Source: Candidatus Omnitrophota bacterium
GTDB lineage: Bacteria; Omnitrophota; Gorgyraeia; Duberdicusellales; 4484-171
DNA length: 64,000 nucleotides
Direction: 5' to 3'
Assembly: GCA_041652815.1 (NCBI GenBank)
Contig: JBAZGN010000001.1
Location: forward strand, 97,363-161,362
The notes beneath the pieces are model-generated. The model made no database searches, had not been told where the DNA came from, and worked only from the letters and a program-made list of their open reading frames with translations. The position numbers and the translations under genes are program-made. Positions within the stretch are counted from its first letter, which is position 1; the number at the start of each line of letters is the position of its first letter. Below, piece after piece: positions 878 through 62,857 of this stretch.

Positions 878-966
878 AGCTCTCAGCTCTCAGTTTTCAG
901 CCATCAGCTGCCCTTCAGGGGCACCCCTTGGGGGGCTGAACGCTGACGACTCATAGCTGAAAGCGT
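878..966. repeat. Stop-proximal palindromic repeat, cagc-heptad family, with core cagctgcccttcaggggcaccccttgggg
   Basis: Imperfect long inverted repeat made of (a/t)tcagc(t) units. A near-identical core copy sits at 57741-57830. Confidence 0.6.
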
Positions 967-1362
967 TTAAAATAATTTTACCATTTTAATCGTACTTCCG
1001 CCATTAGAAAACCTTACACCGTCCATAAGCTTTTTTATGAGAAAAATACCTCTACCTGAAGGTTTTTTTATGTTTTTGCCTTTTGTAGGAGAAGGTATAT
1101 TTTTATAATCAAATCCCTTACCTTGGTCCTTTACAATTATTTCTATAATATGGTTTATAAATTTAACGGCTATGTAAACCAGCTTTTTCTTATCTTTTTT
1201 ATTTCCATGTTTTATGGCATTGACCAATGCTTCCTCAAGGCACAGTCGCACATCAAATAAAATATCTTCTTTTACGCCTTGTGACTTTAATTTTTGGAAA
1301 ATTTCCAATGTGACAGGCAGGATGTTTTTCAAATCGGAATTTATTTTATATTTTATAATCAT
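967..1362 (-). CDS. Anti-sigma regulatory factor (Ser/Thr protein kinase, HATPase_c; RsbW/SpoIIAB-like)
   Basis: EEALVNAIKHGNKKD...VKDQGKGFD...GRGIFLIKKLMD motifs. Start moved to MIIKYK because the upstream part of the ORF runs into a GC-rich repeat. Confidence 0.65.
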   Translation of the reverse strand: MIIKYKINSDLKNILPVTLEIFQKLKSQGVKEDILFDVRLCLEEALVNAIKHGNKKDKKKLVYIAVKFINHIIEIIVKDQGKGFDYKNIPSPTKGKNIKKPSGRGIFLIKKLMDGVRFSNGGSTIKMVKLF

Positions 1363-1439
1363 TTTAAAAAAATAAATTAAATGAACCTCCCCGTCATAAA
1401 TGGCGGGGTTTCTTTGAAAAATTTGGCAAAGATTCATTC

Positions 1440-1560
1440 CTCCGAAGCCAAACTCTGCTTCGCCCCTTGCGAGCAAGTTCCGGTGGGGCTTCGCAGGAGC
1501 TCCTTCGCCTTTATCCCCGGACTAAAGTCCGGGATTCTCGGCGAAGGAGAATAAATATCC
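1440..1560. repeat. GC-rich structured intergenic element
   Basis: Shares the motif ggactaaaGtccgggaTtctc with 2581-2619. Internal inverted repeats ctccttcgcc...ggcgaaggag. GC content far above the local background. Confidence 0.5.
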
Positions 1561-1658
1561 CAGGCAAACAATTTGCGGGACAGTTACAAGCGGCAGCCAA
1601 ATGACTGGTTCTTTCTATATTTGTCCCATACCCCATACAAGTCATTAGCTATAGTTTT

Positions 1659-2003
1659 TTAAGCTTGTACTTTCTTCAAGTCTTTGGTAAGAAAATAACT
1701 AAGTATAGTCCTGATTACTACAATTGCTCCAAGTATCCCAAGGCTTTGCCAGGTTGGGGTAATTATAGTCTTAACAATGTCTCCGGCAATAAAAAACTCA
1801 AGCGCCAAAACAAGGTAACTGCCCAATTTAATCCTTATTGCTTCATTTAGTTGTATTGTTTCTGTACGGTTTAATATCTCTTTTTTTAAGAATTCAGCTA
1901 AAGAAATCAGCGTGCCCCAAACAGTAATTAACGCACCGATTATATTAAATGTAAAACTTATTTTATCTATAGCGATATGCCAAATATCCATACCAACCTC
2001 CAT
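1659..2003 (-). CDS. Small polytopic membrane protein (DUF1622-like)
   Basis: 114 aa with three predicted TM helices. Confidence 0.45.
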   Translation of the reverse strand: MEVGMDIWHIAIDKISFTFNIIGALITVWGTLISLAEFLKKEILNRTETIQLNEAIRIKLGSYLVLALEFFIAGDIVKTIITPTWQSLGILGAIVVIRTILSYFLTKDLKKVQA

Positions 2004-2011
2004 TTGTTTGA

Positions 2012-2650: not shown

Positions 2651-2715
2651 TTTTTTTAATAAGCACAGCATTTTTCCAAGCCGTGAAGCGGCGCAGAAAA
2701 AATGCTAGTGCGAAT

Positions 2716-2882
2716 TCACCCCCCACCACTTTTAGTAATGAACGATTTTTCTGTAAGGCATTCATTCTCTCTCAAACCCACCGCATTTTTGTAACAAGAT
2801 GCTTTCTAAAAGTGGTGGGGGGTTAATTCGGCTACGTTAATTTTCTATGCCGAAGGCATAGAAAATTAAACTGCCTCATTAA
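2716..2882. repeat. Dispersed repeat, aattcggctacg...ctgcctcatta family
   Basis: Layout: a G-rich hairpin (ccccccaccactttt/aaaagtggtgggggg), then ttaattcggctacg, then a second hairpin, then ctgcctcatta. Copies also at 32658-32756, 46125-46288 and 54281-54352. Confidence 0.55.
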
Positions 2883-3012
2883 AAAAAATAGAGCCGGCTA
2901 AATTCTAAGTCGGCTCTACGCCTCCACTAAAGACCCGCCTTTGTGAGGGTCACGGTTTTAAATCGTAACCCACAAAGGTCGGCTCATCGCCTCCCCACCA
3001 TCCCTATTAAAT

Positions 3013-3790: not shown

Positions 3791-4165
3791 TTTTGCCTCC
3801 TCTTTTCTATATAAACCCCGTTTTATGCCGGGGGATAAAATAGAAAACCCCTAGCAAAGCTAGGGGCTAAAAATAAGAAAACCTTGAGGCAAACTCAAGG
3901 TTAAACGTCCCTTTCTGGCGGCCAGGCTGCCCTTTTAGGGGCCCTTTAGCTTTGCGTCCTCCGATTACTCGGAGTTTGCCTTTTTCAGTAAGTCAAATTG
4001 TCAAATTGTCACTTTGTCACTTTCTACCTTTTATATAACATATTTTTGCATAACTTTCAAGTTAACTCAGAAAATACCTGCGAAGTGTGCATTTTCTGAG
4101 TTAAGCTAAAAGCCCAATAAAATCAATGATTTTTTGCCGAATTAGGCCCTCTGAAGTGCCCGCTG

Positions 4166-5642: not shown

Positions 5643-5777
5643 AATGACCTCCTTGTTTATAGTTCCCCAGTGACCCAATCCCCAGTTCCCCAGTTTTGAC
5701 TGGGACACTGGGCACCTGGGGCTCTGGTGCACTTTTCTGTGGTATTTTACCACTTTACTTGTTTTAGGCAATAACTG

Positions 5778-8763: not shown

Positions 8764-8834
8764 GTTTAGCCTCCTATTTAGTCCATAGTCGATAGATTTT
8801 TACTGTGGACTATGGTCTATAGACTGTGGACTGA

Positions 8835-9401
8835 TTATTTTTTTAGATATGCCTTTATTATTTTTACCTCAGAAACCGGCTTATCAGCTGCGCCGGTTTC
8901 TGTATTTTCTATTGCTTCCACCACATCATACCCTGAAATAACTTCGCCGAAAATTGTGTGCTTCATATTAAGCCATGGAGTAGCTGCAGTTGTAATAAAA
9001 AACTGGCTGCCGTTGGTATTAGGGCCGGCATTAGCCATGGCAAGTAAGCCGGGTTTGTCGAATTTAACGCCTGGGGTAACTTCGTCTTCAAAAGGCTTGC
9101 CGCTTGCAGATTTCCCGCCCATTCCCGTACCTGTGGGGTCACCGCCCTGAATCATAAAATCCTTTATTACTCTATGGAAGATAATGCCGTTATAATAACC
9201 TTTTTCTACAAGCTTTGTAAAATTTTCGCACGCCTTTGGCGCAACAGACGGCATAAGTTTAATTTCAATATTTCCCTTGTTTGTTTCTAAAACTACTATT
9301 TCATCCATAGCAAATGCCTCCTTACAAAAACTACCAATAAACAACCCAAGAACAAGCGCAATGATTAACTTTTTCATTTGGCACCTCCCTTTGTTGCGCA
9401 A
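8835..9401 (-). CDS. ppiB: Peptidyl-prolyl cis-trans isomerase, cyclophilin type, secreted
   Basis: FHRVIKDFMIQGGDPTGTGMGG and SQFFIT motifs. N-terminal signal peptide. Confidence 0.85.
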   Translation of the reverse strand: MRNKGRCQMKKLIIALVLGLFIGSFCKEAFAMDEIVVLETNKGNIEIKLMPSVAPKACENFTKLVEKGYYNGIIFHRVIKDFMIQGGDPTGTGMGGKSASGKPFEDEVTPGVKFDKPGLLAMANAGPNTNGSQFFITTAATPWLNMKHTIFGEVISGYDVVEAIENTETGAADKPVSEVKIIKAYLKK

Positions 9402-9577
9402 ATTCGAAATATCGTTGATCGTTCATCGGTTACGCGGCTCGTTTCGTCAATCGTCATATGTTTTACGTTAAACGCAACCGTGACGCGTTGCGCAACCGCA
9501 ACCGTTTTACGAAGATCTTTTACCCGTTTGTTATTTATACCTTTTTTAAATAAAAAATCAACTGAAATTTTTAACGG

Positions 9578-12626: not shown

Positions 12627-12648
12627 CTAGAAGCGGATATCCGCTTCT
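12627..12648. repeat. Minimal copy (terminal inverted repeats only) of the tagaagcggat MITE-like family
   Basis: Perfect palindrome tagaagcggatatccgcttcta. Confidence 0.55.
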
Positions 12649-12649
12649 A

Positions 12650-12868
12650 TTACTTATAGGTAATCTCAATGTTTTTTTCTTCAAGAAAATCGAACAATCT
12701 ATTCATTTCTTTCTCTTTGCCTTCGAAACTAACAATCGCCCATCCCATTTCAGTTGAGAAGGAAGCTTCGATTATTCTTACGGTTAGATCAAAATTTTTT
12801 ATGATGTAGCAAAAAAAAGGTTCATTCTTGTATTCTATCGGAATGTTAAGCTCTACTTCTTTTATCAT
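12650..12868 (-). CDS. Small NIL-domain-like protein
   Basis: 72 aa, MIKEVELNIPIEYKNEPFFCYIIKNFDLTVRIIEASF...GWAIVSFEG. GGAGG RBS. Start trimmed out of the repeat. Confidence 0.45.
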   Translation of the reverse strand: MIKEVELNIPIEYKNEPFFCYIIKNFDLTVRIIEASFSTEMGWAIVSFEGKEKEMNRLFDFLEEKNIEITYK

Positions 12869-12884
12869 ATTAACCTCCATATTA

Positions 12885-12976
12885 TAGAAGCGGATAGCCG
12901 CGGATTTATACGCGGATAAACGCAAGCGAATTACTGTGCGTAAATCCGCGTTGCTATCTGCGGTAATCCGCTTCTA
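12885..12976. repeat. Full copy of the tagaagcggat MITE-like palindromic element
   Basis: About 85% identical over ~92 nt to the inverted copy at 29771-29863. Same terminal inverted repeats as 12627-12648. Confidence 0.65.
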
Positions 12977-12985
12977 ATTATTATA

Positions 12986-14263
12986 CTATACATTTTCAAA
13001 GTTTTTGAATTTTTCTTTCGGCAGGTTAAAATAGCCTATTTTAAGGCGAGGAAACTTTTTGTTTAAGATATTTACGAGAAAACTTATGCCTTTTGGAGAA
13101 AAATCTTTACACCCCAGCATTTCGAAATAAAAATCCGGGTCTATGTTTAGATTGCGCATCTGCAGCATATCTACGCCTGTATTTCTTACAAACGTAAGTA
13201 GAGCCTCGACCTGCTCTTTTGAATCAGAAAATCCCGGAAAGATAAACAGATTTGCCGAAACAAACTTATTGTGTTTTTTTGCTATTTCAATTGACTTAAG
13301 GACATCGCTGAATTTATAGTGCAATGGGCGAAAATAAAGATTATAAAATTTTTCCTGCGGGCTGTTTAAACTCACGCGGAAAGAATCAATGCCCGCCCGA
13401 CAAAGTAAATCAATCTTGCTCGGGATACTTGCATTTGTATTCATATTTATTGTGCCGAGGGAAAGGTTTTGCCTGACCTTAGCTATAGCCTTTGCTATTA
13501 AATCTGCTTCAAGCAAAGGCTCACCCTCGCAACCCTGGCCGAAACTGACTATTGCTTCACGAGCATACGCTAAATGGCTATGCATTACTTCATAAATTTC
13601 CGAAACACTCGGCCTGAAATTTATTCTGCTATGGGACGCTTCGCAATCAGACTCCTGGTAAGAAAGGCAACCTATGCAGCGGGCATTACAGAAACGTGAG
13701 GTAGGAACTGGTGCCTCCCATCTTTGTAAAAAAAAGTTTTTTGCGGCAAGGCAATTATAATTTAAAGCGCAATTTGCAAGATGCCGGAAAAGCCTGTTTT
13801 GTGGATAAGTTCTCAAAAAGATTTTGACTTGTTTTTTTATTAAACTGTTTTTATAAAAACGCGGGCTCTGGCGTATTCTTCTATCTATTCTTTTCGCTGT
13901 AACGTATACGTCTTTGCCAATCATCCCGCAGGCAGTATATGCCCACAAAGGTAATTTACCTTTATCGGCATATACTGCCGCCGGGTTATAAAGCCTAAGA
14001 TACGCTGGAATGATAAATGCAGCTACCGCATATACAGGCCTGGCTTCGAATTCGAAAAGCGGGGTAAACTGCCCGGTTTTTTCATTAAAACCGACGGGTG
14101 CGCGATAGGGAAGATAAAATAAAGAGCTTCCTTTAGGAATTTTTATCAAATCATTTTTTTGCGGCAGTTTAAAAAGATTAAGGCTTGAGACGGCCATTTT
14201 TAAGAAAGGGTGCTGATGGATTTTACCTTTTTGGTCTGAAAAAAGAAGATGTGGAAGGTTCAT
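12986..14263 (-). CDS. Radical SAM enzyme with ~200-aa N-terminal extension
   Basis: CNARCIGC (CxxxCxxC) plus glycine-rich SAM motif SFGQGCEGEPLL. 425 aa. Confidence 0.65.
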   Translation of the reverse strand: MNLPHLLFSDQKGKIHQHPFLKMAVSSLNLFKLPQKNDLIKIPKGSSLFYLPYRAPVGFNEKTGQFTPLFEFEARPVYAVAAFIIPAYLRLYNPAAVYADKGKLPLWAYTACGMIGKDVYVTAKRIDRRIRQSPRFYKNSLIKKQVKIFLRTYPQNRLFRHLANCALNYNCLAAKNFFLQRWEAPVPTSRFCNARCIGCLSYQESDCEASHSRINFRPSVSEIYEVMHSHLAYAREAIVSFGQGCEGEPLLEADLIAKAIAKVRQNLSLGTINMNTNASIPSKIDLLCRAGIDSFRVSLNSPQEKFYNLYFRPLHYKFSDVLKSIEIAKKHNKFVSANLFIFPGFSDSKEQVEALLTFVRNTGVDMLQMRNLNIDPDFYFEMLGCKDFSPKGISFLVNILNKKFPRLKIGYFNLPKEKFKNFENV

Positions 14264-14394
14264 TGATTAGGTTTTAGAAACAGCATTGGAATATACTTGG
14301 GCTCATCAATTGACATACAGTTGAAATGCAATGGAAATACAGTGGAAATGCAATTGTATTTCTATTGTATATCTAGTGTATTTCAATCGTATTT

Positions 14395-14802
14395 CTATTG
14401 CACATCTGCTTTTTTATTTTTAGGCTTTTCAACATACGCCCTTAACCTTAAAGTGATAACGCGGTTTTGTTTGCCTAAAAGTTTTATTTCCTGAATCGTT
14501 AAACCTTTATACTCTGACGGGTCAAATTCTACATTTATAAGAGCGCTATCTTTTTTCTTGGTTACGTTTACCTCAATGCAGTCGCACAGGCTCACGGCAT
14601 TGTTAATTTCTTCTTTAATCTCGTAAGTTTTTTTAAATATTTTATTGGGAGAAATTATTCCTATATTGTATTCGAGAACTTTTCCCTCCGGGGCCTGGGC
14701 ATAAATAAAAAAGCAAAAACTAATCAGAAATAATAATCCGAAGCCATACATGCAAATGCGTAAAATTTTGCCAAAAAGTGTGGAAAATTCTAACTTATCC
14801 AT
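14395..14802 (-). CDS. DUF1573-like membrane-anchored beta-sandwich protein
   Basis: TM anchor then YNIGIISPNK...VSLCDCIEV pattern. Confidence 0.45.
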   Translation of the reverse strand: MDKLEFSTLFGKILRICMYGFGLLFLISFCFFIYAQAPEGKVLEYNIGIISPNKIFKKTYEIKEEINNAVSLCDCIEVNVTKKKDSALINVEFDPSEYKGLTIQEIKLLGKQNRVITLRLRAYVEKPKNKKADVQ

Positions 14803-15992
14803 AAAATTACAAATCCTAAGAGTATAAATAACAAAAACATCAAAAGTTTTATTCCAGCCATATTCTCTTTTAAAAAGTTATTGAATTTTTGAGAACCGAG
14901 CCCAAGAAGAGAAAGTATAAAAACAACCACAAGCGGCAGTATGAACATCAGATTATAAATAACAAGGTAGCTAAAGGCCTTGAGACGTAAATTCGTATTT
15001 TTCAAAATAAGTACTATTGTAGGCAAATATACCTGGCCGGTACAGGCACCTTCAAGTAAAGACACAAGAAAGCCCACAACAAAAGCGCTGATACAAAGGC
15101 TTAACATTCCCTCCTCTTGCTTTTTACGTAAATGCGCGCCGATTACTTCATTGATGCGTTTTTTTAAGAAATGCGGCAGTTGCAAGACCATTCCGTCAGT
15201 TTGTCCGGTTTTTTTGAATTTAAAGAAGTCAAAAAGAGCCAGCCCGGCAAGAACAAAACAGAACCCAGCGATAAAATAATAAAATGTTTTTATGACATTG
15301 TAGAAGTTGGATAAAGAATAAAGAAAATTGAAAAAACCGAGGCCTATGAGAAGATAAGTTAGAAACACTGCGAAACAATATGAAGTGCCAACATAAATTA
15401 TTTCCCTTCTTCGGTAGCCGTAGACTGCAAGAAATGACACGAAGAAAACAATTACCGCAAAAGCACAAGGGTTTACCCCGTCAATAAGCCCGCTGGCAAT
15501 TACCGTAAATATAGAAATTTTTTTAAATACCTGCAAAAGCTCTAATTTAATAAACCCTAAGGGAGTTTTCTTGGCTTTTAAAGCCAACTCTATGGAATTA
15601 ACCAATTTGCTTTTTATTTCGTCTCTTCCGATTAATAAACGGTCTCCAATCAAAACAGAAGGCACGCGGCCGTCAACATTTCTTAACCGGACACTTAATG
15701 TTACAAGCTTAACAAGGTTGGCTGAATTACCGGAAGTATTCAGGTCTTCCCAGGTTACCTTGTTTTTATATTTTTCTTTTATCGAAGGCAGGAATTCTTT
15801 TTCAAGCTCCATGCAAATTTTACAATGGGGAGAATAAAAAACGATTATCTGCAGTTTGCCTTCTTTGTTGGAAGGAATTGAAACAGCCTGATTCGTATTA
15901 TTGACTGGCGTATCCGTAGAAGACTTTGCGGCACTTGGATAAACACAAAAAGGCACAATTGTTAAGGCTATAATCAATAATATGCGCTTCAC
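14790..15992 (-). CDS. Thioredoxin-like periplasmic domain fused to a CcdA/DsbD-type polytopic membrane domain (disulfide relay)
   Basis: Signal peptide. FYSPHCKICMELEKEF thioredoxin-fold motif. TM domain with conserved Cys (GVNPCAFAV, EGACTGQVY). Confidence 0.45.
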   Translation of the reverse strand: MKRILLIIALTIVPFCVYPSAAKSSTDTPVNNTNQAVSIPSNKEGKLQIIVFYSPHCKICMELEKEFLPSIKEKYKNKVTWEDLNTSGNSANLVKLVTLSVRLRNVDGRVPSVLIGDRLLIGRDEIKSKLVNSIELALKAKKTPLGFIKLELLQVFKKISIFTVIASGLIDGVNPCAFAVIVFFVSFLAVYGYRRREIIYVGTSYCFAVFLTYLLIGLGFFNFLYSLSNFYNVIKTFYYFIAGFCFVLAGLALFDFFKFKKTGQTDGMVLQLPHFLKKRINEVIGAHLRKKQEEGMLSLCISAFVVGFLVSLLEGACTGQVYLPTIVLILKNTNLRLKAFSYLVIYNLMFILPLVVVFILSLLGLGSQKFNNFLKENMAGIKLLMFLLFILLGFVILWIS

Positions 15993-16475
15993 CCCGCCCT
16001 TCCTCCTTAGTATTTAAGATTATTATTTTTGCCCCAACCCTTGTTTTTCTTGAAACCTATTAAACTTTTACTTATAAATATAACGCATTTCTGGAAGGGT
16101 GGGGTTCATAATAAATAGATTATACCAAGCATATTATAAAAATCTATAAGTAAATTTTAAACACGAATATCCACGAATCAAAGACGAATTGCCACGAATC
16201 ATTCGTGGAAATTTGTTTCGAATTCGTGGTCATTCGTGTTAACAAATTTATAATGAAAAATGCATAATTTATTGTAGAATATATAAATAATCAAATTAGG
16301 CTAAAGGCTAAACAACAAATTTCAATGAATTTCGCAAAGCGAATTTCTACTAATTTCGATTGTCCGCCACCGATGACTTTTTATATGTGGGCGGATCCGC
16401 CTCAGGCGGAAAATTGGTAGAAATTAAGAAATTGATAGAAATTTATTGTCTTTGATCTATTCGGAGGTTTTTGGA

Positions 16476-17309
16476 ATGAAGATTTATCTTGCCAAGCACT
16501 GTGGTTTCTGTTTCGGGGTAAAAAGGGCTATCAAAATAGCCAAAGAAACAGCTGCTAAATATAAAAATATATACATAAAAGGCGACCTTGTGCATAATGA
16601 AGCTGTCTGCAAGAAAATAGAAAAATCCGGCATAAAAAGGATGGATTCTCTGGACAAGCTGCCTGTCGGATCGAATGTAATCATAAAAGCTCATGGCGAG
16701 CCTCTTAAAACTTATAAGACACTTCAGGCTATGGATTTAAACATAGTGGATGCAACGTGCCCTATGGTAAAAGATATACATAAAAAAGCCCGGGAACTCG
16801 AACAAAAAGGGTACCAGGTTGTCATAATCGGCGACAGAAATCATGAGGAAACAAAAGGCATATTGGGTAACGTAAAAAATGGCGTTATTCTGGAAAATAA
16901 AAATGACGCTGATAAATTAAAGGGAAATATTAAAAATAAGATCGGCGTTTTATGCCAATCAACCCAGACGCTTGAAAACGTGACAGCTACCGTGCATGAA
17001 CTCGCAAAGCACGCAGAAGAGCTTTTCTTTATAAATACGATATGCAATCCTACTCGTCTTCGCCAGAATGAAATAGAAGAATTATCTTCTAAATGCGCGG
17101 CTGTATTAATTGTCGGCTCAAAGAAAAGCGCAAATACAAAAAGGCTTTATGAGGCGGCGAAAAAAATAAATAAAAACGCTTTCTGGATAACATCAGAAAA
17201 AATAAACAAGAATGATTTTAGTAAATTCAAATCAATAGGCATAATTGGAGGCGCTTCCACCCCGGTTGAAGTCCTGCAAACGATAACAAGGAGATTAAAT
17301 GATTTATAA
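16476..17309 (+). CDS. ispH: 4-hydroxy-3-methylbut-2-enyl diphosphate reductase
   Basis: MKIYLAKHCGFCFGVKRAI...DLVHNEAV...DATCPMV. Start chosen at MKIYL. Confidence 0.85.
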   Translation: MKIYLAKHCGFCFGVKRAIKIAKETAAKYKNIYIKGDLVHNEAVCKKIEKSGIKRMDSLDKLPVGSNVIIKAHGEPLKTYKTLQAMDLNIVDATCPMVKDIHKKARELEQKGYQVVIIGDRNHEETKGILGNVKNGVILENKNDADKLKGNIKNKIGVLCQSTQTLENVTATVHELAKHAEELFFINTICNPTRLRQNEIEELSSKCAAVLIVGSKKSANTKRLYEAAKKINKNAFWITSEKINKNDFSKFKSIGIIGGASTPVEVLQTITRRLNDL

Positions 17310-24409: not shown

Positions 24410-24424
24410 AAATCAGTCTATTGT

Positions 24425-26149: not shown

Positions 26150-26290
26150 ATTTATAAAATAACCAAATCCCAAGATACAATAACCAAACAATAACCAATA
26201 ACCAAATTCCAATGACCAAACAAAAAATCAATACAATTGTTTGGTGATTGGTTATTGGATATTGGAATTTGTTTGGAGCTTGTATCTTGG
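26150..26290. repeat. About 140-nt imperfect palindrome built from accaa(a/t) units
   Basis: Identical 22-nt ends ataaccaaatcccaagatacaa in inverted orientation. Generates mirrored pseudo-ORFs 26049-26231 and 26241-26447 that share LYLGIWLFYK. Confidence 0.7.
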
Positions 26291-26309
26291 GATTTGGTTA
26301 TTCTACAAA

Positions 26310-27257
26310 TCATGCCGAGATTTTTCTCAATTTCGCTACGAAAAAGCCTTCCATGAATTCATTAGGTATTACGCGCCTTGTAAGCTTACAGGCATTGGAA
26401 AAATGTTTATTGCGCCATTTAGTGATACCGCAAAACACATTATTTAAAGGAAATTCTATTGGTACAACCTCTAATTGTTCTTTAAATTTATTGATAAACC
26501 AATCTATCACCCCTTCGTTTTCTTCGGGTGAAAAGGTGCAGGTAGAATACACTAGTTCTCCTCCTTCTTTTAAAGCAAAGAATGCAGAATGCAGCAGGGA
26601 TTTTTGCTTATCATGGAGCTCTTTTACTTTTCTTTCCTTCCAGTATTTATAGCTTCTTGGATTATTCAGGTCGAAGAGGCCTTCCGCAGAACAAGGAGCA
26701 TCTACCAGAATTTTGTCAAAATATTCCGGAAATTTCTTTCTTGCCCAGAAACCGTCCTGTGCGAAAGTTTCTACGTTGGTTACTCCCTGGATTTTTAAAT
26801 TAGCTTCCAGCTTACAATGCCTGATGTGCTCTTTTTCAAAGGCGACAATTTCTGCATTCGGAGCAAGGGAAGCTATCTGGGTAGTTTTTGCCCCAGGAGA
26901 CGCACACAGGTCAAGAATCTTTTGCCCATTTTGAGGGCTAAGTGCAATAACCGGAAGCATACTTGATACATTTTGCACATATATAAACCCGTTTCTATAT
27001 GCAGGGGTTTGCTGCAGCCCCCTAAAGGGAACTTTCGAAAGAAATGCGCCCTTGGGGAATGGGAGCTCCTGAAAGCGTAAACCGTCTGCAAGCAATTCCT
27101 TCTTTAAGCTTACCAAATCTGTTTTTAGATAGTTTATCCTGAAAGTGGTTTGCTTCTTCACTAAGAATGTAGTTAATATTTGCTGAAAATGATGAGGGTA
27201 TAGCGCTTCTATTTTTTCAAGAAAGCCTTTTGGTAATTTATAGAATATTTCATTCAC
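26310..27257 (-). CDS. rRNA cytosine-C5 methyltransferase, RsmB/RsmF (NOL1/NOP2/Sun) family
   Basis: DLCASPGAKT, VDAPCSAEG and YSTCTF motifs. Confidence 0.75.
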   Translation of the reverse strand: MNEIFYKLPKGFLEKIEALYPHHFQQILTTFLVKKQTTFRINYLKTDLVSLKKELLADGLRFQELPFPKGAFLSKVPFRGLQQTPAYRNGFIYVQNVSSMLPVIALSPQNGQKILDLCASPGAKTTQIASLAPNAEIVAFEKEHIRHCKLEANLKIQGVTNVETFAQDGFWARKKFPEYFDKILVDAPCSAEGLFDLNNPRSYKYWKERKVKELHDKQKSLLHSAFFALKEGGELVYSTCTFSPEENEGVIDWFINKFKEQLEVVPIEFPLNNVFCGITKWRNKHFSNACKLTRRVIPNEFMEGFFVAKLRKISA

Positions 27258-29020: not shown

Positions 29021-29203
29021 CATGATAATAGCTTTGAAACGCAGATGATCGCAGATCATTTTACAATAAATTTCTATTAATTTCTTAATTTCTACCAATT
29101 TCTATTACCATTGAAATTTATAGAAATTTGCTTTGCGAAATTGAGAAATTATTTATTAAATAATTTGTGATCATCTGCTTTAAAATCTGTAATTATCTGT
29201 GTG

Positions 29204-29758: not shown

Positions 29759-29770
29759 CGCTTCGCTCCA

Positions 29771-29863
29771 TAGAAGCGGATTCACGCGGATGTTTACGCG
29801 GATTTACGCACAATAATTCGTTGGCGTTTATCCGCGTATAAATCCGCGGCTATCCGCTTCTAT
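29771..29863. repeat. Second full copy (inverted) of the tagaagcggat MITE-like element
   Basis: Reverse complement aligns with 12885-12976, including the internal block gcggatttatacgcggataaacgc. Confidence 0.65.
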
Positions 29864-37613: not shown

Positions 37614-37702
37614 AACTAAAATTTGATGATAGATTCTAGATGCTGGATGCTCGTTGAAAGGTTTTTACTATCATCTAGTATCAAGTATCTATCTGGACGG
37701 CT

Positions 37703-39382: not shown

Positions 39383-39463
39383 TTCTAAAGCCTTCAGCTA
39401 TCAGCTTTCAGTCTTCAGCTGAAAGCAGAAGACTGATGGCTGAAAGCTTTTTTAGTCTTTAGT

Positions 39464-41158: not shown

Positions 41159-41271
41159 TCAACCTCGCTTCGCTCGGTTAGTTCACAGAGTACAGATTAC
41201 AGAAAGCAGAGTACAGAATAATTTCTTATTTCTTCTCTGTTCTCTATACTCTGTTATCTGTTCTCTTTTTC

Positions 41272-53235: not shown

Positions 53236-53431
53236 TATTACAATCTGTCAATGAAGAATTTAAGCGTTACAATAAGCTACATTTACAATGTAAGCCTGTG
53301 AAAAAGCTATAAATCCTTCAATTTTACGGCCACATATGGCACGATAAGCCTGTAGCTTACAGCTTTTAGCATAAAAACTTGCCATAATAGCTTTTGTATG
53401 GTATAAATAATTTCAATTAACAGGAGGGAAA

Positions 53432-55217: not shown

Positions 55218-55261
55218 AAGCCCTCCTTATATGAATTAAGGTTTATTTTGGTTAAAGTAAA

Positions 55262-55335
55262 TGGCGGCGAGTGGATTTGAACCACCGACGCAACGGGTAT
55301 GAGCCGTTTGCTCTACCAAGCTGAGCTACACCGCC
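55262..55335 (-). tRNA. tRNA-Met (anticodon CAU; elongator Met or lysidine-modified Ile2 cannot be distinguished)
   Basis: Reverse complement GGCGGTGTAGCTCAGCTTGGTAGAGCAAACGGCTCATACCCGTTGCGTCGGTGGTTCAAATCCACTCGCCGCCA folds as a canonical cloverleaf. CCA not encoded. Confidence 0.85.
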
Positions 55336-55427
55336 AAATTAGTTAACTAAAGTAAAATAGCACGAGCGAGTGGATTTTCCGCCTTCGCTAAAGCTTCGGC
55401 GGACCCGCCTTTTATTTTATATTAAGG

Positions 55428-55491
55428 TGGCGGGGAACCACCGACCGAACGGGTATGAGCCGTTTGCTCTACCAAGCTGAGCTATCCCGCC
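55428..55491 (-). pseudogene. Truncated tRNA-Met(CAU) paralog lacking about 10 nt of the T-arm
   Basis: GGCGGGATAGCTCAGCTTGGTAGAGCAAACGGCTCATACCCGTTCGGTCGGTGGTTCCCCGCCA. The acceptor/D/anticodon arms are intact, but the T-loop is deleted and the acceptor 3' strand has an extra C. Confidence 0.55.
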
Positions 55492-55573: not shown

Positions 55574-56659
55574 CTATAGATTTTTATATATCTCAATAAG
55601 CGGGACATTGAATTTTCTTGCGGCAATAAGACAATCTTCGTATTCCGGGGCATCTTTTTGGAATGGTTCAGCGGATATCCTAAATCTGATTTTTCCGAAT
55701 TTAGTTTTTTTTGAAACAAAATTATATTTCAGCTTGTCTCTTGAATATTCGCTGTAACGTATGCCAAAAGTGGTTGTGTGAGAAAAAATTACATCTCTTA
55801 TTTTTTCAAAATCCTTATGCATGCATAAAACGTTTAAGACAAAAGCCGGCCTGGTTTTTTTCATAATAACCTGCTCGATATATGCTTCTCTTGCACCATT
55901 TGCATAAAGCTTTTCAAAAACATTTTCGAACGCTTGCGGATTCATATCGTCGATATTTGTTTCTATCTTAATTATTTTATCTTGCTCTATCTGTGGACTA
56001 TGGTCTATGGACTGTGGACTTAAATAGGCAACAAGGTAATCGGTTTCTGCGGCAGCACCATAAGCAGTGCTGTATTTTCCCAAATCGAAGCTGCATTCAA
56101 GCTGATTCGCATCTTTTAATAATATTGCCGCGGTAGGCGTTATTGATTCGTAGCCAAAGTTTTTGGGATTTATTTTTTTACCTTTAAGAATTTCGAAAGT
56201 TGCTCTTGACGGCATACTTAAGGGAAAATTTGAAACGTATATCTCGTTAATTCCGAGGTATTGAAGCCCGATATAAAAACCACAGATTTCTAAAATTGCA
56301 TCGAGCTTGCCTAAGTGGTGGAATTTAAAATCCGCTGTCTTTGCGCCGTGGATTTTGCGTTCTATTTCGAAAAGTTCTTGATACGCGCGTATAGCTTTCT
56401 CTCTAATACCTCTCTCCAGTTTTGATTTAGAAATAAGTTTTAGTATCTTAAGATAAGACAGGTTAAGTTCTCCTTTGAAATCCAAACATTTATTTTTGTG
56501 GTGGTTATTTTCTATTTCTTTTAAGGCGATATCGAAATCCACATTCAGTTTTCTAAGTTCTTTTTTTAGATGCGAAACGGGATACCCCAGGCCGATTAAG
56601 GAATAAAGCAGCATATCGCCTGCTGCACCGCCGACAAGTTGGAAATATATACTTTTCAT
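55574..56659 (-). CDS. larC: Nickel-pincer cofactor biosynthesis protein LarC (DUF111)
   Basis: MKSIYFQLVGGAAGDMLLYSLIGLG N-terminus. Contains an in-frame repeat-derived insertion SPQSIDHSPQ at 55991-56021. Confidence 0.7.
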   Translation of the reverse strand: MKSIYFQLVGGAAGDMLLYSLIGLGYPVSHLKKELRKLNVDFDIALKEIENNHHKNKCLDFKGELNLSYLKILKLISKSKLERGIREKAIRAYQELFEIERKIHGAKTADFKFHHLGKLDAILEICGFYIGLQYLGINEIYVSNFPLSMPSRATFEILKGKKINPKNFGYESITPTAAILLKDANQLECSFDLGKYSTAYGAAAETDYLVAYLSPQSIDHSPQIEQDKIIKIETNIDDMNPQAFENVFEKLYANGAREAYIEQVIMKKTRPAFVLNVLCMHKDFEKIRDVIFSHTTTFGIRYSEYSRDKLKYNFVSKKTKFGKIRFRISAEPFQKDAPEYEDCLIAARKFNVPLIEIYKNL

Positions 56660-56761
56660 AACGCTAATTGACGCGAATCTAACGCAAATAAACGCGAATG
56701 AAAAACAAATGCGAATAAAACTATTCGTGAACATTCGCGTTCGATTCGCGAGTATTCGCGT

Positions 56762-57454
56762 TTATTTGTTAATCAAATGCGCGAAGTATCCTGCTCCAAG
56801 CCCGTTGTCTATATTTACGCACACAGACCCAGGCGCACAACTATTAAGCATACCTAAAAGTGCGCTAAGGCCCCGGAAAGACGCTCCATAACCAATGCTT
56901 GTAGGAACTCCGATTATGGGTGATGGGCAAATACCTGAAATTATACTTAACAAAGCTGCTTCCATGCCGGCAACAACGATTAAAACATGTGCCTTTCTTA
57001 TTTTATCCTTGTAAGGTGTAATCCTGTGCACGCCGGCAACGCCTATATCGTAAATCCTTTCCACTTTGTTTCCTAAAATTTCAAGAAACATTGCGGCCTC
57101 TTCAGCAACAGGAATGTCTGAAGTGCCTGCTGTAATTATCAGGCAATTTCCACGATTTGCGTTAATTTCTTTTCCCAAAAAAGCGAGCTGGGAAATTTTA
57201 AAATATTTTAATTTAGGGTAGGATTTTTTTAATATTTTAAATTGAGGTTGCGTGAGGCGCGATATAAAGATTAAATTGGTATATTTTTTAAATTCCTTAA
57301 TGATGCCTTTAAGTTGATTAATAGTTTTACCTGGTGCGTAAATTATTTCCGGCAGACCCTTCCTTCTTTCTCTTTCAATATCAAGCTTAACAAATTCAAG
57401 GTCAATAAATCCTTTGGGTTTCATTAAACAAAGAGGTCTTTGAAAATCGTCCAA
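56762..57454 (-). CDS. larB: Nickel-pincer cofactor biosynthesis protein LarB (PurE-like carboxylase)
   Basis: VVAGMEAALLSIISGICPSPIIGVPTSIGYGASFRGLSALLGMLNSCAPGSVCVNIDNGLGAG. The start may be the internal MKPKGF. Confidence 0.75.
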   Translation of the reverse strand: MDDFQRPLCLMKPKGFIDLEFVKLDIERERRKGLPEIIYAPGKTINQLKGIIKEFKKYTNLIFISRLTQPQFKILKKSYPKLKYFKISQLAFLGKEINANRGNCLIITAGTSDIPVAEEAAMFLEILGNKVERIYDIGVAGVHRITPYKDKIRKAHVLIVVAGMEAALLSIISGICPSPIIGVPTSIGYGASFRGLSALLGMLNSCAPGSVCVNIDNGLGAGYFAHLINK

Positions 57455-57732
57455 AGCAGCGCAACAATTACGGCAGCAGAAACTATATAGAAATCATTGA
57501 AATATAGGAATTCGCGTAAAGCATCCTTAAATTTGTGCTTTTTTTCCGGCAGGTTATATTTATTTTTTATCGTTTCTTTAACTTTAGAAATCTCTTCTTT
57601 TCGAAAACGCAGGAATTCTCCCGCTACTTTAAAACTTGGGAGAAGATTTGCATTTGCCAAATCTATAATCTCTTGTTCGCTTAAACCCAAAATTTTTGAC
57701 ACTTCTCTTGTAGTTAATAATCTTTCTTTCAT
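57424..57732 (-). CDS. Excisionase/MerR-like HTH domain protein with C-terminal TM anchor
   Basis: LTTREVSKILGLSEQEIIDLANANLLPSFKV HTH. C-terminal IVSAAVIVALLWTIF. Confidence 0.5.
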   Translation of the reverse strand: MKERLLTTREVSKILGLSEQEIIDLANANLLPSFKVAGEFLRFRKEEISKVKETIKNKYNLPEKKHKFKDALREFLYFNDFYIVSAAVIVALLWTIFKDLFV

Positions 57733-57740
57733 CTTTAAAA

Positions 57741-57830
57741 GCCTTCAGCTATCAGATGTCAGCCATCAGCTGCCCTTCAAGGGGCACCCCTTGGGGACTG
57801 AGAGCTGAAAGCTGATGTCTGAAAGCTATT
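57741..57830. repeat. cagc-heptad palindrome, second copy of the cagctgcccttcaaggggcaccccttgggg core
   Basis: Matches 878-966. Shorter cagc-type palindromes without the core at 39389-39448, 44164-44229, 45188-45242 and 55538-55578, each just downstream of a stop codon. Confidence 0.6.
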
Positions 57831-58325: not shown

Positions 58326-58390
58326 TCAAATCACCTCCCTCAATAAAAACCTTAAATTCTAAATTTTTTTTAGAATTTAGGGTTTCGGGT

Positions 58391-59831: not shown

Positions 59832-59966
59832 ATATTAATAGCAAGGAAGGTTTATTAAACAATAAATTTCTACAAATTTCGCGAAGCTAATTTCTATCAA
59901 TTTCGATTTGAAATTTGTAGAGATTCATAGAAATCAAGAAATTTATTGTTTCTTTCTCTCTACTTT

Positions 59967-61190
59967 CTACTTTTCTAAAACGAGCATGCCTTTTAGAAAA
60001 TCTGCGGCTCTGACTATAAGATAATCCTTTTTATAATCGAATTCTGTTTTGGTTTCCAATTTTTCAAAAACATCTTCTTTTCTATCGGTACCCACATCAT
60101 TGACAACAACTATATCGGGTGTTACACCCTTTTCGTGTATACTTGTACCTAGCGGCGTATAATATCTTGAAGTAGTAAGCCTAAGGGCCGAACCGTCAGA
60201 AAGAGGGATTATCGTTTGCACCGAGCCCTTCCCAAAACTGGTTTCTCCCATAACAACAGCTTTTTTATTGTCGCGAAGCGCTGAAGCAAGAATTTCACTT
60301 GCGGAAGCACTTCCTTTATTTACCAAAACTACTATCGGCAAAGCGCTGTATTTTTCCCTTAGCGCAACCGACTTATATACATTTTCTTTTTCTGTCCTTG
60401 ATTTTGTAGAAACAACGACCTTGTCAGTTTCCAGAAACCTGCTCGTTACATCAATCGCCGATTCAAGCAGGCCTCCGGGATTATTCCTGACGTCTATCAC
60501 TATTGCCTTAAGCCCTTTCTTGTTTAATTCCTGTAAAGCTCGATCCAGGTCTCTTGCGGTATTTTCCCTGAATTCCGCTATCCTTACATAACCTATACCA
60601 TCCTCGAGTATTTCGGCGTGCTTGATATCCTTTATTTTTATTATTGCCCGCACCAGCGTAACATCCTCAAGCTTTTTGTCTTTTTCTTTAAGTACAGTAA
60701 GAGTGACTTTTGTGCCAGGGTCTCCTCTTAGTTTTTTTACGGCTTCGGTTATTGTAATTCCTTTTGTTACCTTTCCATCTATCTTAACAATTATGTCTCC
60801 GGGCTTAAGGCCTGCAGTCCAGGCAGGGGTATCTTCCATGGGAGAAACTACCGTAAGCAATGTGTCACGTATGGTAATTTCAACACCCAAACCTCCGAAT
60901 TTGCCTTCCGTATCTACCAGTAATTCCCGGTATTCATCCGGACTTAAGAATTCGCTATAGGAATCGAGAGAAGCAAGCAGACCGTCCAAAGCCCCGTAAA
61001 TTAAATCGTGCGGCGGTTTTTCCTCTACATATTTTTTTTCAATTACAGCCAGAGCTTCAGCGAATACATCCAGCTCTTTGTAGAAATTGTCTTCGCGTTC
61101 TTTGGCAATTGAAACTTTGTTATAATAAGAAAAAATACCTACACATATAAGTGCGGTTATTATTACACCTAACAAAAATCTTTTTCGCAT
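59967..61190 (-). CDS. ctpA: Carboxy-terminal processing protease (S41) with PDZ domain
   Basis: PDZ (GLKPGDIIVKIDG) plus S41 catalytic GSASASEILA...K. Confidence 0.85.
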   Translation of the reverse strand: MRKRFLLGVIITALICVGIFSYYNKVSIAKEREDNFYKELDVFAEALAVIEKKYVEEKPPHDLIYGALDGLLASLDSYSEFLSPDEYRELLVDTEGKFGGLGVEITIRDTLLTVVSPMEDTPAWTAGLKPGDIIVKIDGKVTKGITITEAVKKLRGDPGTKVTLTVLKEKDKKLEDVTLVRAIIKIKDIKHAEILEDGIGYVRIAEFRENTARDLDRALQELNKKGLKAIVIDVRNNPGGLLESAIDVTSRFLETDKVVVSTKSRTEKENVYKSVALREKYSALPIVVLVNKGSASASEILASALRDNKKAVVMGETSFGKGSVQTIIPLSDGSALRLTTSRYYTPLGTSIHEKGVTPDIVVVNDVGTDRKEDVFEKLETKTEFDYKKDYLIVRAADFLKGMLVLEK

Positions 61191-61199
61191 ATTTTTCCC

Positions 61200-61338
61200 T
61201 CCTTTAATAAAATCCTAAACACTAAACTCGAAACACTAAACAAACTACAAACACGAAACTACAAACTCGAAACGTTTAGGGTTTGTAATTTATAGCTTCG
61301 AGTTTGTTTAGAGTTTAGGATTTCGGGTTTAGAGTTTA
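61200..61338. repeat. About 135-nt imperfect palindrome built from aaac(t/a)(a/c) units
   Basis: aaatcctaaacactaaactcgaaacactaaacaaactacaaac... with its complement gtttaggg...gtttgtttagagtttaggattt. Lies directly after the gatB stop. Confidence 0.65.
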
Positions 61339-62754
61339 TCATTTAATTGCTTTTTCAAGCAGCTCCTTGACCACTTTTGGGTTAGCTTTGCCTTTGGTCT
61401 TTTTCATCACACTGCCGACAAGAAACATTATCGCCTGTTCTTTTCCGTCCATATATTCTTTTACGGCTTTCTGGTTTTCTTTTATTGCTTCTTCAACAAG
61501 CCCTTTTAACTCAGATTCGTTGGATACCTGGGAAAGCCCTTCTTTTTTAATAATTTCATCTATGTCATTATTATTATTGATGCTAAGAACAAGGACTTTT
61601 TTGGCTGCTAAATTATTCAGGAGCCCGGTAGAAAAATACTTCACAATCTTTGAAAAATTTTGCGCGCTCAATTTCACCGATTGAAACCTGTCAGGAAACG
61701 TATTTACCTGCTCCAAAAATGGCCCAATAATAAAATTACATATTTTTTTAGGCTCATTAAATTCTTTTACTGCCTCTTCGAAATAATCCGCAATAAATTT
61801 CTCTGATATCAGCACATCCGTATCAGACTCCTGTAGCTTGTATATATCAAGAAACCTTTTATATCTATCATGCGGAAGTTCTTTTACAAATGGTTTTTCT
61901 TTTTCCATGAATTCTTCCTCAACCAAAAAATCCAAAAGGTCGGGCTCTGGGAAATAACGGTAATCGTGGGCTTCTTCCTTGCTACGCATTACTTCGGTTC
62001 TTTGTATGTCTCCATCCCAAAGCCGGGTTTCCTGAAAAATCTTTCCGCCTTCGCCAAGAACTTTAGATTGCCTGGCTATCTCGTATTCTAACGCATCCCT
62101 TACCCCTTTAAAAGTATTCATATTTTTTAATTCAACCTTAACCCCAAGCGCTGAGGCGCCTTTATTCTTCAATGATACGTTAGCGTCGCAACGCAGGCTT
62201 CCTTTTTCCATGTTGCATTCAGAAGCGCCTATGTATTGAAGAGCTAATTTAAGACAGGTAAGATAGCCAAAGGCTTCTTGGGGGCTGGTTATGTCCGGGT
62301 TTGAAACTATTTCTAAAAGAGGCGTGCCGGTTCTGTTTAAGTCAACCAGAGAATAATTTTCTTTATGGATAAGTTTTCCAGCATCTTCCTCAAGGTGAAC
62401 CCGGGTTATGCCGATTGTCTTTCCTGTCCGTAAACTAAGCTCGCCATTTTCCCCCAAAGGCATTTTATACTGGGATATCTGGTAATTTTTGGGTAAATCA
62501 GGATAAAAATAATTTTTTCTCTCAAAATATATTTTTTTATTTATTTTACACTTTAAAGCAAGCGCTACCCTTATGGCAAGCTCGAGAGCGCGCTTGTTAA
62601 AAACAGGAAGCACCCCAGGATAGCCGCAACAAACAGGGCAAATATTAGTATTCGGCGGATTTTCAAACTTCGTAGAGCACGAGCAGAAAATCTTAGAAAG
62701 AGTGTTAAGCTGTACGTGAACCTCCAAGCCTATTACTGTGTCGAATTCCTGCAT
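61339..62754 (-). CDS. gatB: Asp-tRNA(Asn)/Glu-tRNA(Gln) amidotransferase subunit B
   Basis: Full-length GatB (…GLEVHVQLNT…CPVCCGYPG…). Confidence 0.9.
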   Translation of the reverse strand: MQEFDTVIGLEVHVQLNTLSKIFCSCSTKFENPPNTNICPVCCGYPGVLPVFNKRALELAIRVALALKCKINKKIYFERKNYFYPDLPKNYQISQYKMPLGENGELSLRTGKTIGITRVHLEEDAGKLIHKENYSLVDLNRTGTPLLEIVSNPDITSPQEAFGYLTCLKLALQYIGASECNMEKGSLRCDANVSLKNKGASALGVKVELKNMNTFKGVRDALEYEIARQSKVLGEGGKIFQETRLWDGDIQRTEVMRSKEEAHDYRYFPEPDLLDFLVEEEFMEKEKPFVKELPHDRYKRFLDIYKLQESDTDVLISEKFIADYFEEAVKEFNEPKKICNFIIGPFLEQVNTFPDRFQSVKLSAQNFSKIVKYFSTGLLNNLAAKKVLVLSINNNNDIDEIIKKEGLSQVSNESELKGLVEEAIKENQKAVKEYMDGKEQAIMFLVGSVMKKTKGKANPKVVKELLEKAIK

Positions 62755-62759
62755 AGTTT

Positions 62760-62857
62760 TTCTTTTTAGGTTACGAAGGTTACGGATGTTACGAAAGTTA
62801 CGGATGTTACATTAAAACATCGTGATTTATTGTAACCTTCGTAACGTTCGTAACCTT
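62760..62857. repeat. Palindrome built from gttacg(a/g)a(a/g)g units
   Basis: ggttacgaaggttacggatgttacgaaagttacggatgttac...gtaaccttcgtaacgttcgtaacc. Lies directly after the gatA stop. Confidence 0.65.

Follow-up and report, generated by a model that had tools for sequence, protein, structure and literature searches.

Bacterial miniature inverted-repeat transposable elements (MITEs), such as Correia/NEMIS, ERIC, RUP and Chunjie, are small, non-coding and intergenic, carry terminal inverted repeats and are often co-transcribed; they also have target-site duplications and a cognate insertion sequence (IS) transposase, and their arms are not arrays of tandem words. Repetitive extragenic palindromic (REP) sequences within operons stabilise the upstream mRNA, as at malE-malF. 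REPINs consist of two inverted conserved parts and a less conserved middle, form a hairpin in single-stranded DNA or mRNA, leave no target duplication and insert new copies in or beside existing ones (PMC3116915). The short tandemly repeated repetitive (STRR) heptamers of cyanobacteria also form hairpins, for example in the hupS/hupL spacer of Nostoc/Anabaena; their function is unknown, and roles in transcript stability, translational coupling and termination have been proposed (PMC2670836). In marine Beggiatoaceae a single heptamer word, TAACTGA, lies just upstream of starts as direct repeats (one inverted case among 170), and these repeats also occur in cyanobacteria and Bacteroidetes (PMC4679880). 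Here we analyse hairpins with arms of tandem words that lie between the genes of a 64,000-nucleotide stretch (contig JBAZGN010000001.1; hereafter the window) belonging to the genome of an uncultured Candidatus Omnitrophota bacterium. Bacteria of this group have very small cells and compact genomes and have not been cultured, and our search of the literature on their repeats found no description of such elements. The reading we favour, to which we give a probability of roughly 60%, is that the hairpins belong to numerous families of small, palindromic, non-coding interspersed repeats, comparable to REPINs, MITEs and STRRs.

The palindromes of the window are real and non-random. An einverted-like inverted-repeat scan (match +3, mismatch -4, gap -7, span ≤260) finds 21 repeats scoring ≥45, compared with 0.7 on average and at most 3 in ten dinucleotide shuffles, and 19-20 of the 21 fall outside maximal open reading frames (ORFs), that is, in 13% of the window. 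By a permutation test both arms are significantly periodic at ~18-20 window sites, and none of the in-ORF inverted repeats of the window is periodic. The period is 7 nt at 11 window sites and 8, 9, 10 or 11 nt elsewhere, and Tandem Repeats Finder (TRF) reports many period-7 arrays in the same intergenic gaps. The DNA-level scan and the periodicity test were adopted because folding energy could not separate signal from background: sliding RNAfold/Lfold energy was dropped as a detector, as coding DNA yields many local folds of -20 to -60 kcal/mol. An ungapped palindrome scan missed many hairpins, and Rfam at gathering thresholds matched only a c-di-GMP riboswitch and a tRNA in the window. A preliminary description, made from the sequence alone, had listed sites most of which hold up (26150, 61200, 62760, 16150, 56690, 8780, 41170, 14290, 5650, three aatttct sites and six cagc sites). 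Two fare less well: 3980-4030 is a direct repeat only (dG -3.6), immediately 5' of the riboswitch, and 53240-53300 is weak (score 33).

Dispersal is what marks these hairpins as repeat families. We compared the window with 200 further loci (labelled L; 2 Mb of DNA in total, ~20 kb per genome), and this sample contains, at non-orthologous sites, similar copies of at least 12 of the 22 window hairpins. Within the window, copies at loci tens of kb apart are 84-97% identical, spacers and loops included, and 12885-12976 and 29771-29862 form one paralogous pair in opposite orientations. Each locus was thought to use its own word; many words are indeed present, but TCAG occurs six times in the window, GCGGAT and AATTTCT three times each and CGYGAAT twice, and the earlier remark that several families are dispersed is borne out both here and in other genomes. 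Families with fixed termini recur across genomes in our alignments (TAGAAGCGGAT...ATCCGCTTCTA, AAATTCCAAAT and the TCAG family). The GCGGAT family has the same termini and spacer lengths in at least nine contigs, and its fixed termini TAGAAGCGGA...TCCGCTTCTA, present in 16 copies, constitute terminal inverted repeats. Families are common to genomes whose GatB proteins are 65-94% identical, where they occupy non-orthologous junctions, and nested elements are found at L023:3892 and at window positions 29022-29196 and 16312-16449. A metagenome scan with the pattern GAAGCGGATNNNCGCNGAT specifies 15 bases, and most of its 120 matches are chance matches in high-GC contigs; filtering left ~12 further real GCGGAT elements, in low-GC contigs that also bear other word hairpins flush with stop codons. 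A scan of viral contigs gave one chance match, in a contig of 71% GC. At the level of sequence comparison, these data show that copies have spread to new intergenic sites.

The arms share a common design. Each consists of 3-10 tandem units, 7-11 nt long, in which a conserved core word of 4-9 nt is joined to an A/T-rich variable spacer. Sample-wide, the period is 7 nt in 26 of 44 periodic hairpins and 6 or 8-11 nt in the remainder. Pairing involves 86% of the positions that are conserved at the repeat period and 66% of the other arm positions (Fisher p 1e-18); cores thus pair between arms while spacers stay mostly unpaired, and the fold is therefore a chain of short word helices with periodic small internal loops. 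Among 11 GCGGAT-family copies from 9 contigs, helix columns are 90% identical and spacer columns 40% (random 32%), with covariation nearly nil. The core has a single variable position, GC(G/T/A)GAT, which tends to change jointly across one arm (L160:6585, L131, L191); as judged from the alignments, such joint change is a mark of tandem-array homogenisation. Units are also gained or lost, as seen at 62770-62810, where 18 nt of one arm are duplicated in tandem, and in the differing unit numbers of the window and L004 at the same gatA/gatB junction. Arms are thus shown, as far as aligned copies can tell, to evolve by unit gain and loss with concerted core changes.

High hairpin density is restricted to the window and some of its relatives. 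Repeats scoring ≥45 number 3.3 per 10 kb in the window, 1.2-6.1 in L001-L005, L007 and L008, and 1.9-4.7 in L011, L013, L023 and L024, compared with 0-0.5 per 10 kb in the majority of the other Omnitrophota loci; L009, L012 and the three complete chromosomes CP070807, CP070797 and CP070684 are among the hairpin-poor ones. Among proteins of Candidatus Omnitrophota metagenome-assembled genomes (MAGs), three match the window GatB at 94%, 88% and 85% identity; for further relatives (L004-L036), of which nearly all are Omnitrophota MAGs, GatB identity is 63-76%. Look-ups of the exact GatB and Hcp proteins gave no record, whereas an identical AccA is present in a Ca. Omnitrophica MAG. Another set of relatives, with L206, L208 and L211 among them, was chosen by AccA, 83-90% identical; even these "close" relatives have 4-fold-site identities of 0.44-0.59, that is, near-saturated synonymous divergence.

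The gene order gatA-gatB-ctp-... is kept in 13-15 genomes, which allows orthologous junctions to be compared. The gatA/gatB gap is 0-5 nt in L006, L009, L010, L012, L024 and L002 (one junction), and the same junction holds hairpins of differing families in the window and in further relatives. Gaps that measure 0-7 nt in L002, L006, L009, L012, L206 and L211 are filled in the window, and the junction past ctp carries eight different words in eight genomes. At the PilB2/PilC junction of L206, positions 17271-17290 consist of two units of the word found at window 37628-37693, either a deletion remnant or a seed. The hairpin between PilB1 and PilB2 is 93% identical over aligned positions among the window, L206 and L208, and at least this copy appears, from its sequence, to be under purifying selection. 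Because junctions are filled, empty or occupied by another family, and because some copies are conserved, we conclude that over long periods hairpins come and go and replace one another, and that some are strongly constrained. Position without sequence conservation, which the preliminary description had proposed to look for in related genomes, is seen past ctp; other junctions are empty in some relatives, and at PilB1/PilB2 the sequence itself is kept. Rapid in-place sequence drift was considered and dropped, given the highly conserved PilB1/PilB2 ortholog and relatives near-saturated in synonymous sites.

The G+C content of the window is about 38%. Its genes lie nearly all on the minus strand (the exception being 16446-22555) and comprise housekeeping and type IV pilus genes, among them hcp, a TonB-dependent receptor gene, genes for radical SAM enzymes, pilQ, two pilB/mshE-type ATPase genes, pilC, a GGDEF protein gene, yifB, larC, ctp, gatB and gatA. 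Nearly every gene had been said to be followed by a palindrome. When tested against random positions, an enrichment linked to stops is clear (a repeat scoring ≥36 begins -15 to +50 nt from the stop in 21 of 66 genes; random positions 3.0, maximum 10), but hairpins follow only ~1 gene in 3; of the 41 junctions whose annotated gap is ≥50 nt, about half have one. Relative to the stop codon, hairpins start between -10 and +15 nt, with a single exception at +44, and they end 0-25 nt ahead of the next ribosome-binding site (RBS) or start codon; a GGAG or GAGG motif lies between hairpin end and next start in about half of the cases. A 24-nt tail containing a Shine-Dalgarno sequence and a start codon, AACCGAGCGAAGCGAGGTTGAATG, is identical at window 41159-41184 (-) and at L208:17530, where it follows different hairpin families at non-orthologous junctions; a variant, CGAAGTGAGGCGATATG, stands at L208:13936 and, in L001, just upstream of gatB. 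The tail may serve as a portable module for ribosome binding that accompanies the hairpins. Across all loci, the 216 co-directional junctions carry 39 of the 44 periodic hairpins, the 19 divergent ones 3 and the 12 convergent ones 1, and none of the 44 lies inside an ORF; the frequency per junction is similar for divergent (3/19) and co-directional (39/216) pairs. From these counts we conclude that the hairpins are intergenic in general and not specific to 3' ends. Their placement flush with stops is explained by gaps of just 0-30 nt at these junctions in hairpin-free relatives.

Based on these findings, we propose that palindromic families like REPINs, MITEs and STRRs colonise stop-to-RBS gaps and change via unit slippage. 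Some mobilising enzyme would spread them by copy-and-paste, and copies would persist only where no gene is broken, as their positions suggest; because the genome is compact, survival would be limited to stop-to-RBS gaps or divergent spacers. The hairpins are most likely part of the mRNA, because they lie inside co-directional gene strings and lack U-tracts, and by analogy they are probably co-transcribed as bulged intercistronic hairpins. In mRNA they might act as REP sequences and bacterial interspersed mosaic elements (BIMEs) or cyanobacterial STRRs do, as barriers to 3' exonucleases, and might uncouple or tune neighbouring cistrons rather than serve as dedicated terminators.

It should be noted that several observations weigh against this explanation. 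Singletons in the sample make up ten of the 22 window hairpins and 23 of the 27 clusters, and a de novo origin is possible for them. The more than 15 different words would call for many sequence-specific mobilising enzymes, or for one that recognises structure. A tblastn search with E. coli RayT, a REP-associated tyrosine transposase (RAYT), gave no match in the window and the 200 loci (E>0.3), NCBIfam and Pfam searches found no transposase among 30 window proteins, and no consistent target-site duplication is present at 16 GCGGAT flanks and four filled-versus-empty junctions, where a terminal TA and one possible TAA are ambiguous as duplications. Nor did the sampled loci contain a related autonomous IS whose ends match. 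The two units at the PilB2/PilC junction of L206 could represent a seed and not a remnant. That the cores are invariant and do not covary points to sequence recognition or homogenisation, and not to selection on the fold alone. Finally, G-U pairs number 30 on the sense and 48 on the antisense strand, and folding energy does not differ significantly between the strands; together with the occurrence of elements in both orientations, these comparisons offer no positive evidence for function at the RNA level and leave it possible, and the lack of a sense G-U excess fails to support such a role.

A tentative alternative, which we regard as possible, is that the hairpins are a clade-wide, selectively maintained intercistronic "punctuation", in which word arrays within a bulged hairpin are read by a trans-acting protein. 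The putative reader could be a nuclease, a helicase, an RNA chaperone or a structure-specific recombinase that also spreads the hairpins. This possibility arises because cores are invariant across genera while spacers are saturated and covariation is lacking, because conservation of an orthologous hairpin reaches 93% against about 50% identity at 4-fold sites, and because the recurring 24-nt Shine-Dalgarno tail follows different hairpins; through this tail the elements could restore translation of the downstream gene.

Local de novo generation, as advanced in the preliminary description, would start from a short local seed and proceed by slipped-strand expansion and template switching or fold-back synthesis, yielding locus-specific words. 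We consider it unlikely as the source of most hairpins. Slippage does alter unit number, and the tandem arms (one with its 18-nt duplication), the joint change of core variants along an arm, the singleton words (23 of 27 clusters), a stop codon inside the first word in L005 and the two units of the window's word at the otherwise empty L206 junction all agree with a local process. Copies within one genome are nevertheless 84-97% identical, non-repeated spacers and loops included, tens of kb apart, families share termini and spacer lengths in at least nine contigs, and even a sample of 2 Mb contains non-orthologous relatives of 12 of the 22 window hairpins. Local generation would therefore fit how arms change, and not where most hairpins come from.

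It is quite unlikely that the hairpins are dedicated factor-independent ("I-shaped", U-less) terminators or RNA-processing punctuation whose position is selected while the sequence is free. The start of hairpins at stop codons, the occurrence of different sequences at one junction in many genomes and an orthologous hairpin far more conserved than 4-fold sites would all suit such a role. The hairpins are however found between normally co-transcribed genes (gatA-gatB, type IV pilus genes), where relatives have 0-7 nt or overlapping genes, they occur in divergent spacers and in both orientations, their sense strand has no G-U bias, and it is sequence that is conserved, not structure alone. The claim of a specific 3'-end architecture is accordingly not supported, since divergent junctions are equally occupied, no sense G-U excess exists and the gaps of 0-30 nt in hairpin-free relatives account for the stop-flush position; the sites at 16150-16250 and 16300-16440, described as following stops, lie between divergently transcribed genes instead. 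Canonical intrinsic terminators resemble the word hairpins in lying 3' of stop codons, but have a short GC-rich stem followed by a U-tract, whereas the stems here are AU-rich, bulged and 25-70 bp long and no T-tract follows (0-3 T in the 10 nt 3' of the hairpin in 17 of 19 cases; 4-5 at 37628 and 58347). Only 58347-58385 approaches the form of an intrinsic terminator. Canonical terminators with a GC stem and T-tract are separately present in the window, for example at 35496-35466, 5293-5267 and 24423-24460, and the word hairpins are a class apart from them; that they are not canonical intrinsic terminators had been noted before.

The hairpins might also be DNA-level protein-binding arrays, in which a protein, for example a nucleoid, uptake-sequence or recombinase factor, binds core words spaced 7 or 10-11 bp apart, the palindrome itself being secondary. 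We think this very unlikely. More than 15 unrelated words imply many proteins, the arms are always inverted pairs with matched unit order, which indicates a hairpin or cruciform, no protein emerged as a candidate binder, and the DNA uptake sequence and uptake signal sequence (DUS/USS) systems use one word per genome. In its favour are cores invariant across genera without covariation and with free spacers, periods of 10-11 nt and 21 nt (three heptads) that match helical repeats, the absence of strand asymmetry and the type IV pilus genes of the window. DNA-uptake sequences as such were dropped, since there are many words instead of one, and so were CsrA-type GGA sites, as GGA occurs in one family only and is paired there. 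The chance that the hairpins are assembly or amplification artefacts such as fold-back chimeras is negligible: multiple displacement amplification (MDA) or assembly errors can make palindromes and the source is a MAG, but the hairpins are contig-internal and lie between intact genes, independent assemblies reproduce them (a European Nucleotide Archive (ENA) MEGAHIT contig is 99.95% identical over 12.9 kb, gap-free, across hairpins, and a Logan contig is 100% identical across two), and dozens of MAGs and metagenomes built with different assemblers contain these families as well.

Table 1. Word hairpins and related elements of the window, with their placement, copies and orthologous junctions (dG in kcal/mol; period in nt).
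Position	Strand	Element	Score	dG	Period	Placement	Copies and orthologous junctions
872..970	-	TCAG/CAGC heptad hairpin, GC-rich central core	46	-49.1	7, both arms	Overlaps stop of gene 967-1476; ends directly before GGAGG and ATG of 527-862	92% identity over 52 nt to 57745; aligned in TCAG family
5661..5733	-	CCCCAGT(T) word hairpin	39	-37.7	8 (p=0.002, both arms)	44 nt past hcp stop; 20 nt ahead of AGGAGG-ATG	
8775..8837	-	AGTCCAC/TGGACTA heptad hairpin	38		7	Contains stop codon of 8835-9401	One arm 96% identical to in-frame array 55991-56020
9402..9577	-	Degenerate CGGTTGCG/ACGA word element, probable decayed family member	No repeat ≥30				85% identity over 81 nt to L005:6809 (non-orthologous junction)
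12628..12649	-	Minimal TAGAAGCGGATATCCGCTTCTA hairpin, GCGGAT-family outer unit pair only				Immediately past stop of 12650-12925	
12879..12981	-	TAGAAGCGGAT...ATCCGCTTCTA family hairpin	58	-51.6	10	4 nt past stop of 12986-14263; GGAGG directly next	95% identity over 68 nt to 29796, inverted orientation
14307..14400	-	11-nt-period hairpin, GAAATACAATNG type	59		11 (p=0.002)	Overlaps stop of 14395-14802	89% identity over 57 nt to L005:4500 (non-orthologous junction)
16105..16294 (core 16152-16248)	.	CGTGAAT word hairpin	81	about -40	21 (TRF)	Spacer between divergent 14790-15992(-) and ispH 16446(+)	
16312..16449	.	AATTTCT word arms; 94-nt loop with GC-rich mini-hairpins (nested or composite element)	45		10 (p≤0.01)	Same divergent spacer as 16105..16294	97% identity over 39 nt to 29063
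26150..26310	-	ACCAA(A/T)/AAATTCCAAT family hairpin, longest	131	-82.6 (strongest predicted fold)	7	Fills gap from stop of rsmB-like 26310-27257 to ATG at about 26146	Clusters with L004:3081, L011:12656, L013:6328, L013:17001
29022..29196	-	Composite hairpin, CAGATNAT words outer, AATTTCT words inner	68				39 nt in common with 16411 at 97%
29770..29863	-	TAGAAGCGGAT...ATCCGCTTCTA family hairpin	73	-51.2	10	Abuts TAA stop of 29863-30660; GGAGCGAAGCGATG next	
37628..37693	-	GATAG/CTAGAT heptad hairpin	39		7 (p=0.002)	Between PilB2 and PilC, junction 89 nt	L206 junction 20 nt, content ACAGATAGCAGAT only
39396..39448	-	TCAG heptad hairpin	47	-29.5	7	Between two PilB/MshE-type ATPase genes	Orthologous copies in L206 and L208; 75/81 aligned nt identical to L206, 4-fold sites of flanking genes 0.50-0.59
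41185..41261	-	ACAGAGT heptad hairpin; tail AACCGAGCGAAGCGAGGTTGAATG next	45		7	Between MshEN-domain gene and PilB1, junction 113 nt	Tail again at L208:17530; junction 1 nt in L206, 7 nt in L211
44161..44230	-	TCAG heptad hairpin	43	-31.2	7	Between accA and padR-like gene, junction 71 nt	Junction 6 nt in L206; hairpin reproduced in L204 and L205
45197..45241	-	TCAG heptad hairpin	35	-20.7		Between ykuD-like gene and accA, junction 67 nt	L206 junction 29 nt, hairpin-free; hairpin reproduced in L204 and L205
55535..55573	-	TCAG heptad array, single arm without partner				Upstream of degenerate tRNA-like copy	In TCAG alignment
56660..56762	-	CGCGAAT word hairpin	50	-38.8	10 (TRF 21)	Abuts stop of 56762-57454 and likely ATG of larC	
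57737..57830	-	TCAG heptad hairpin, GC-rich core	45	-47.4	7		Paralog of 872-970 (92% over 52 nt)
58347..58385	-	Short TAAATTCTAAA hairpin, then TTTTTATT; sole terminator-like one	44		7		
59857..59951	-	AATTTCT family hairpin	45			Past ctp gene	84% identity over 52 nt to 16310
61206..61348	-	TAAAC(T/C)C heptad hairpin	78	-49.2	7	Between gatB and ctp; overlaps gatB stop region; stops short of AAAGGAGGG	
62768..62856	-	GGTTACGAA 9-mer hairpin, one arm enlarged by 18-nt tandem duplication	64		9	Between gatA and gatB	Word and loop matched at same junction in L004 (GatB 76% identical); junction empty in L002, L020; other families in L001, L003, L005, L007

Further repeats and small features accompany the hairpins. 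A one-armed AGTCCAC/TGGACTA array at 55991-56020 (-) lies in frame within the larC ORF (55574-56734), in the linker of the LarC1 and LarC2 domains, and encodes SPQSIDHSPQ. The sole strong in-ORF repeat is a near-perfect palindrome without word periodicity at 13925-13985 (score 59, 26/30 ungapped), in the radical SAM ORF 12986-14263. A small ORF at 57455-57730 (-) begins right past the hairpin at 57737-57830 (MKERLLTTREVSKILGLSEQEIIDL...) and gives the impression of a helix-turn-helix protein; the longest-ORF model missed it because of an overlapping plus-strand ORF. A tRNA-Met gene and an upstream degenerate tRNA-like copy occupy 55261-55336 and 55428-55491 (-), the copy scoring 33 bits with Rfam without being called by ARAGORN and being preceded by the TCAG half-array. 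Directly upstream of the pilin gene 35519-35968, a direct repeat of 21-nt period (35958-36027, 3.3 copies, minus-strand AGGTGTAAGAGGTAAAAAAGG-like) contains GGAGGTG. The c-di-GMP-I-GGC riboswitch at 3913-3989 (-) scores 63 bits (gathering threshold 59), is preceded at 3992-4023 by 3.5 direct copies of GTCAAATT, and stands in a neighbourhood rich in c-di-GMP-related genes (GGDEF, PilZ and MshEN domains).

A second dispersed structured element of ~150-200 nt is found on the minus strand of the window at 2672-3012, 32614-32754 and 46095-46281, and again at L005:6100, L007:11546, L024:1652, L024:11465, L085:6550 and L125:2098. Its consensus, AATGAGGCAGCAACTTTTC..GAAAAGTTGCGTAGCCGAATTAACCCCnCACC ... 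GGTGnGGGGTTCAATTCGCA..GCATTTTT, lacks word arrays and is maintained from genome to genome. When the copy at 46040-46300 was compared with Rfam at a permissive E-value, only chance miRNA matches came back, and the element could be REP-like or a novel non-coding RNA.

The filling of half of the non-trivial junctions in one clade bears on how compact genomes tolerate or exploit mobile non-coding DNA in operons. With paired words, hypervariable unpaired spacers and arm-wide sweeps, these hairpins also offer a second independent system for the unexplained STRR hairpins, one that permits tests of the interplay between tandem slippage, palindrome maintenance and mobility. On the practical side, the elements inflate ORF calls at gene starts and break short-read assemblies, and they could be used as strain markers within the clade.

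Compared with described systems, the Omnitrophota hairpins share features with several. They resemble MITEs in being small, non-coding, intergenic and hairpin-forming with terminal inverted repeats, and differ from them in their word-array arms and in that neither target-site duplication nor IS transposase was seen here. With the TAACTGA repeats they share abundant intergenic heptamer arrays in an uncultured lineage, although those repeats do not form hairpins. The earlier analogy to REP/BIME sequences is apt, since the hairpins are extragenic, palindromic and dispersed and lie within operon-like gene strings; as in REP/REPIN systems there are several families per genome and hairpin-forming inverted conserved arms. 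REP arms, however, are single palindromic units of ~20-35 nt, whereas the arms here are arrays of 3-10 words of 7-11 nt; the families are far more numerous than is usual for RAYT systems, with no RAYT found in the 2-Mb sample, and REPIN spacers show compensatory changes where the spacers here are simply unpaired. With the REPINs, the STRRs come nearest among described systems. Mazel et al. in 1990 reportedly gave CCCCAGT and TTGGTCA as STRR words, which would resemble the words at 5661-5733 and 26150-26310; our literature search on STRR word sequences found nothing relevant. STRRs likewise consist of tandem units, usually of 7 bp, that are hairpin-capable and intergenic or intercistronic, with several words per genome (PMC2670836). 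STRRs belong to heterocystous cyanobacteria and the present hairpins to Omnitrophota, where they are much denser locally (about half of the non-trivial junctions), form at least 27 clusters in the sample, use periods of 8-11 nt besides 7 and show a family architecture with fixed termini and spacer lengths.

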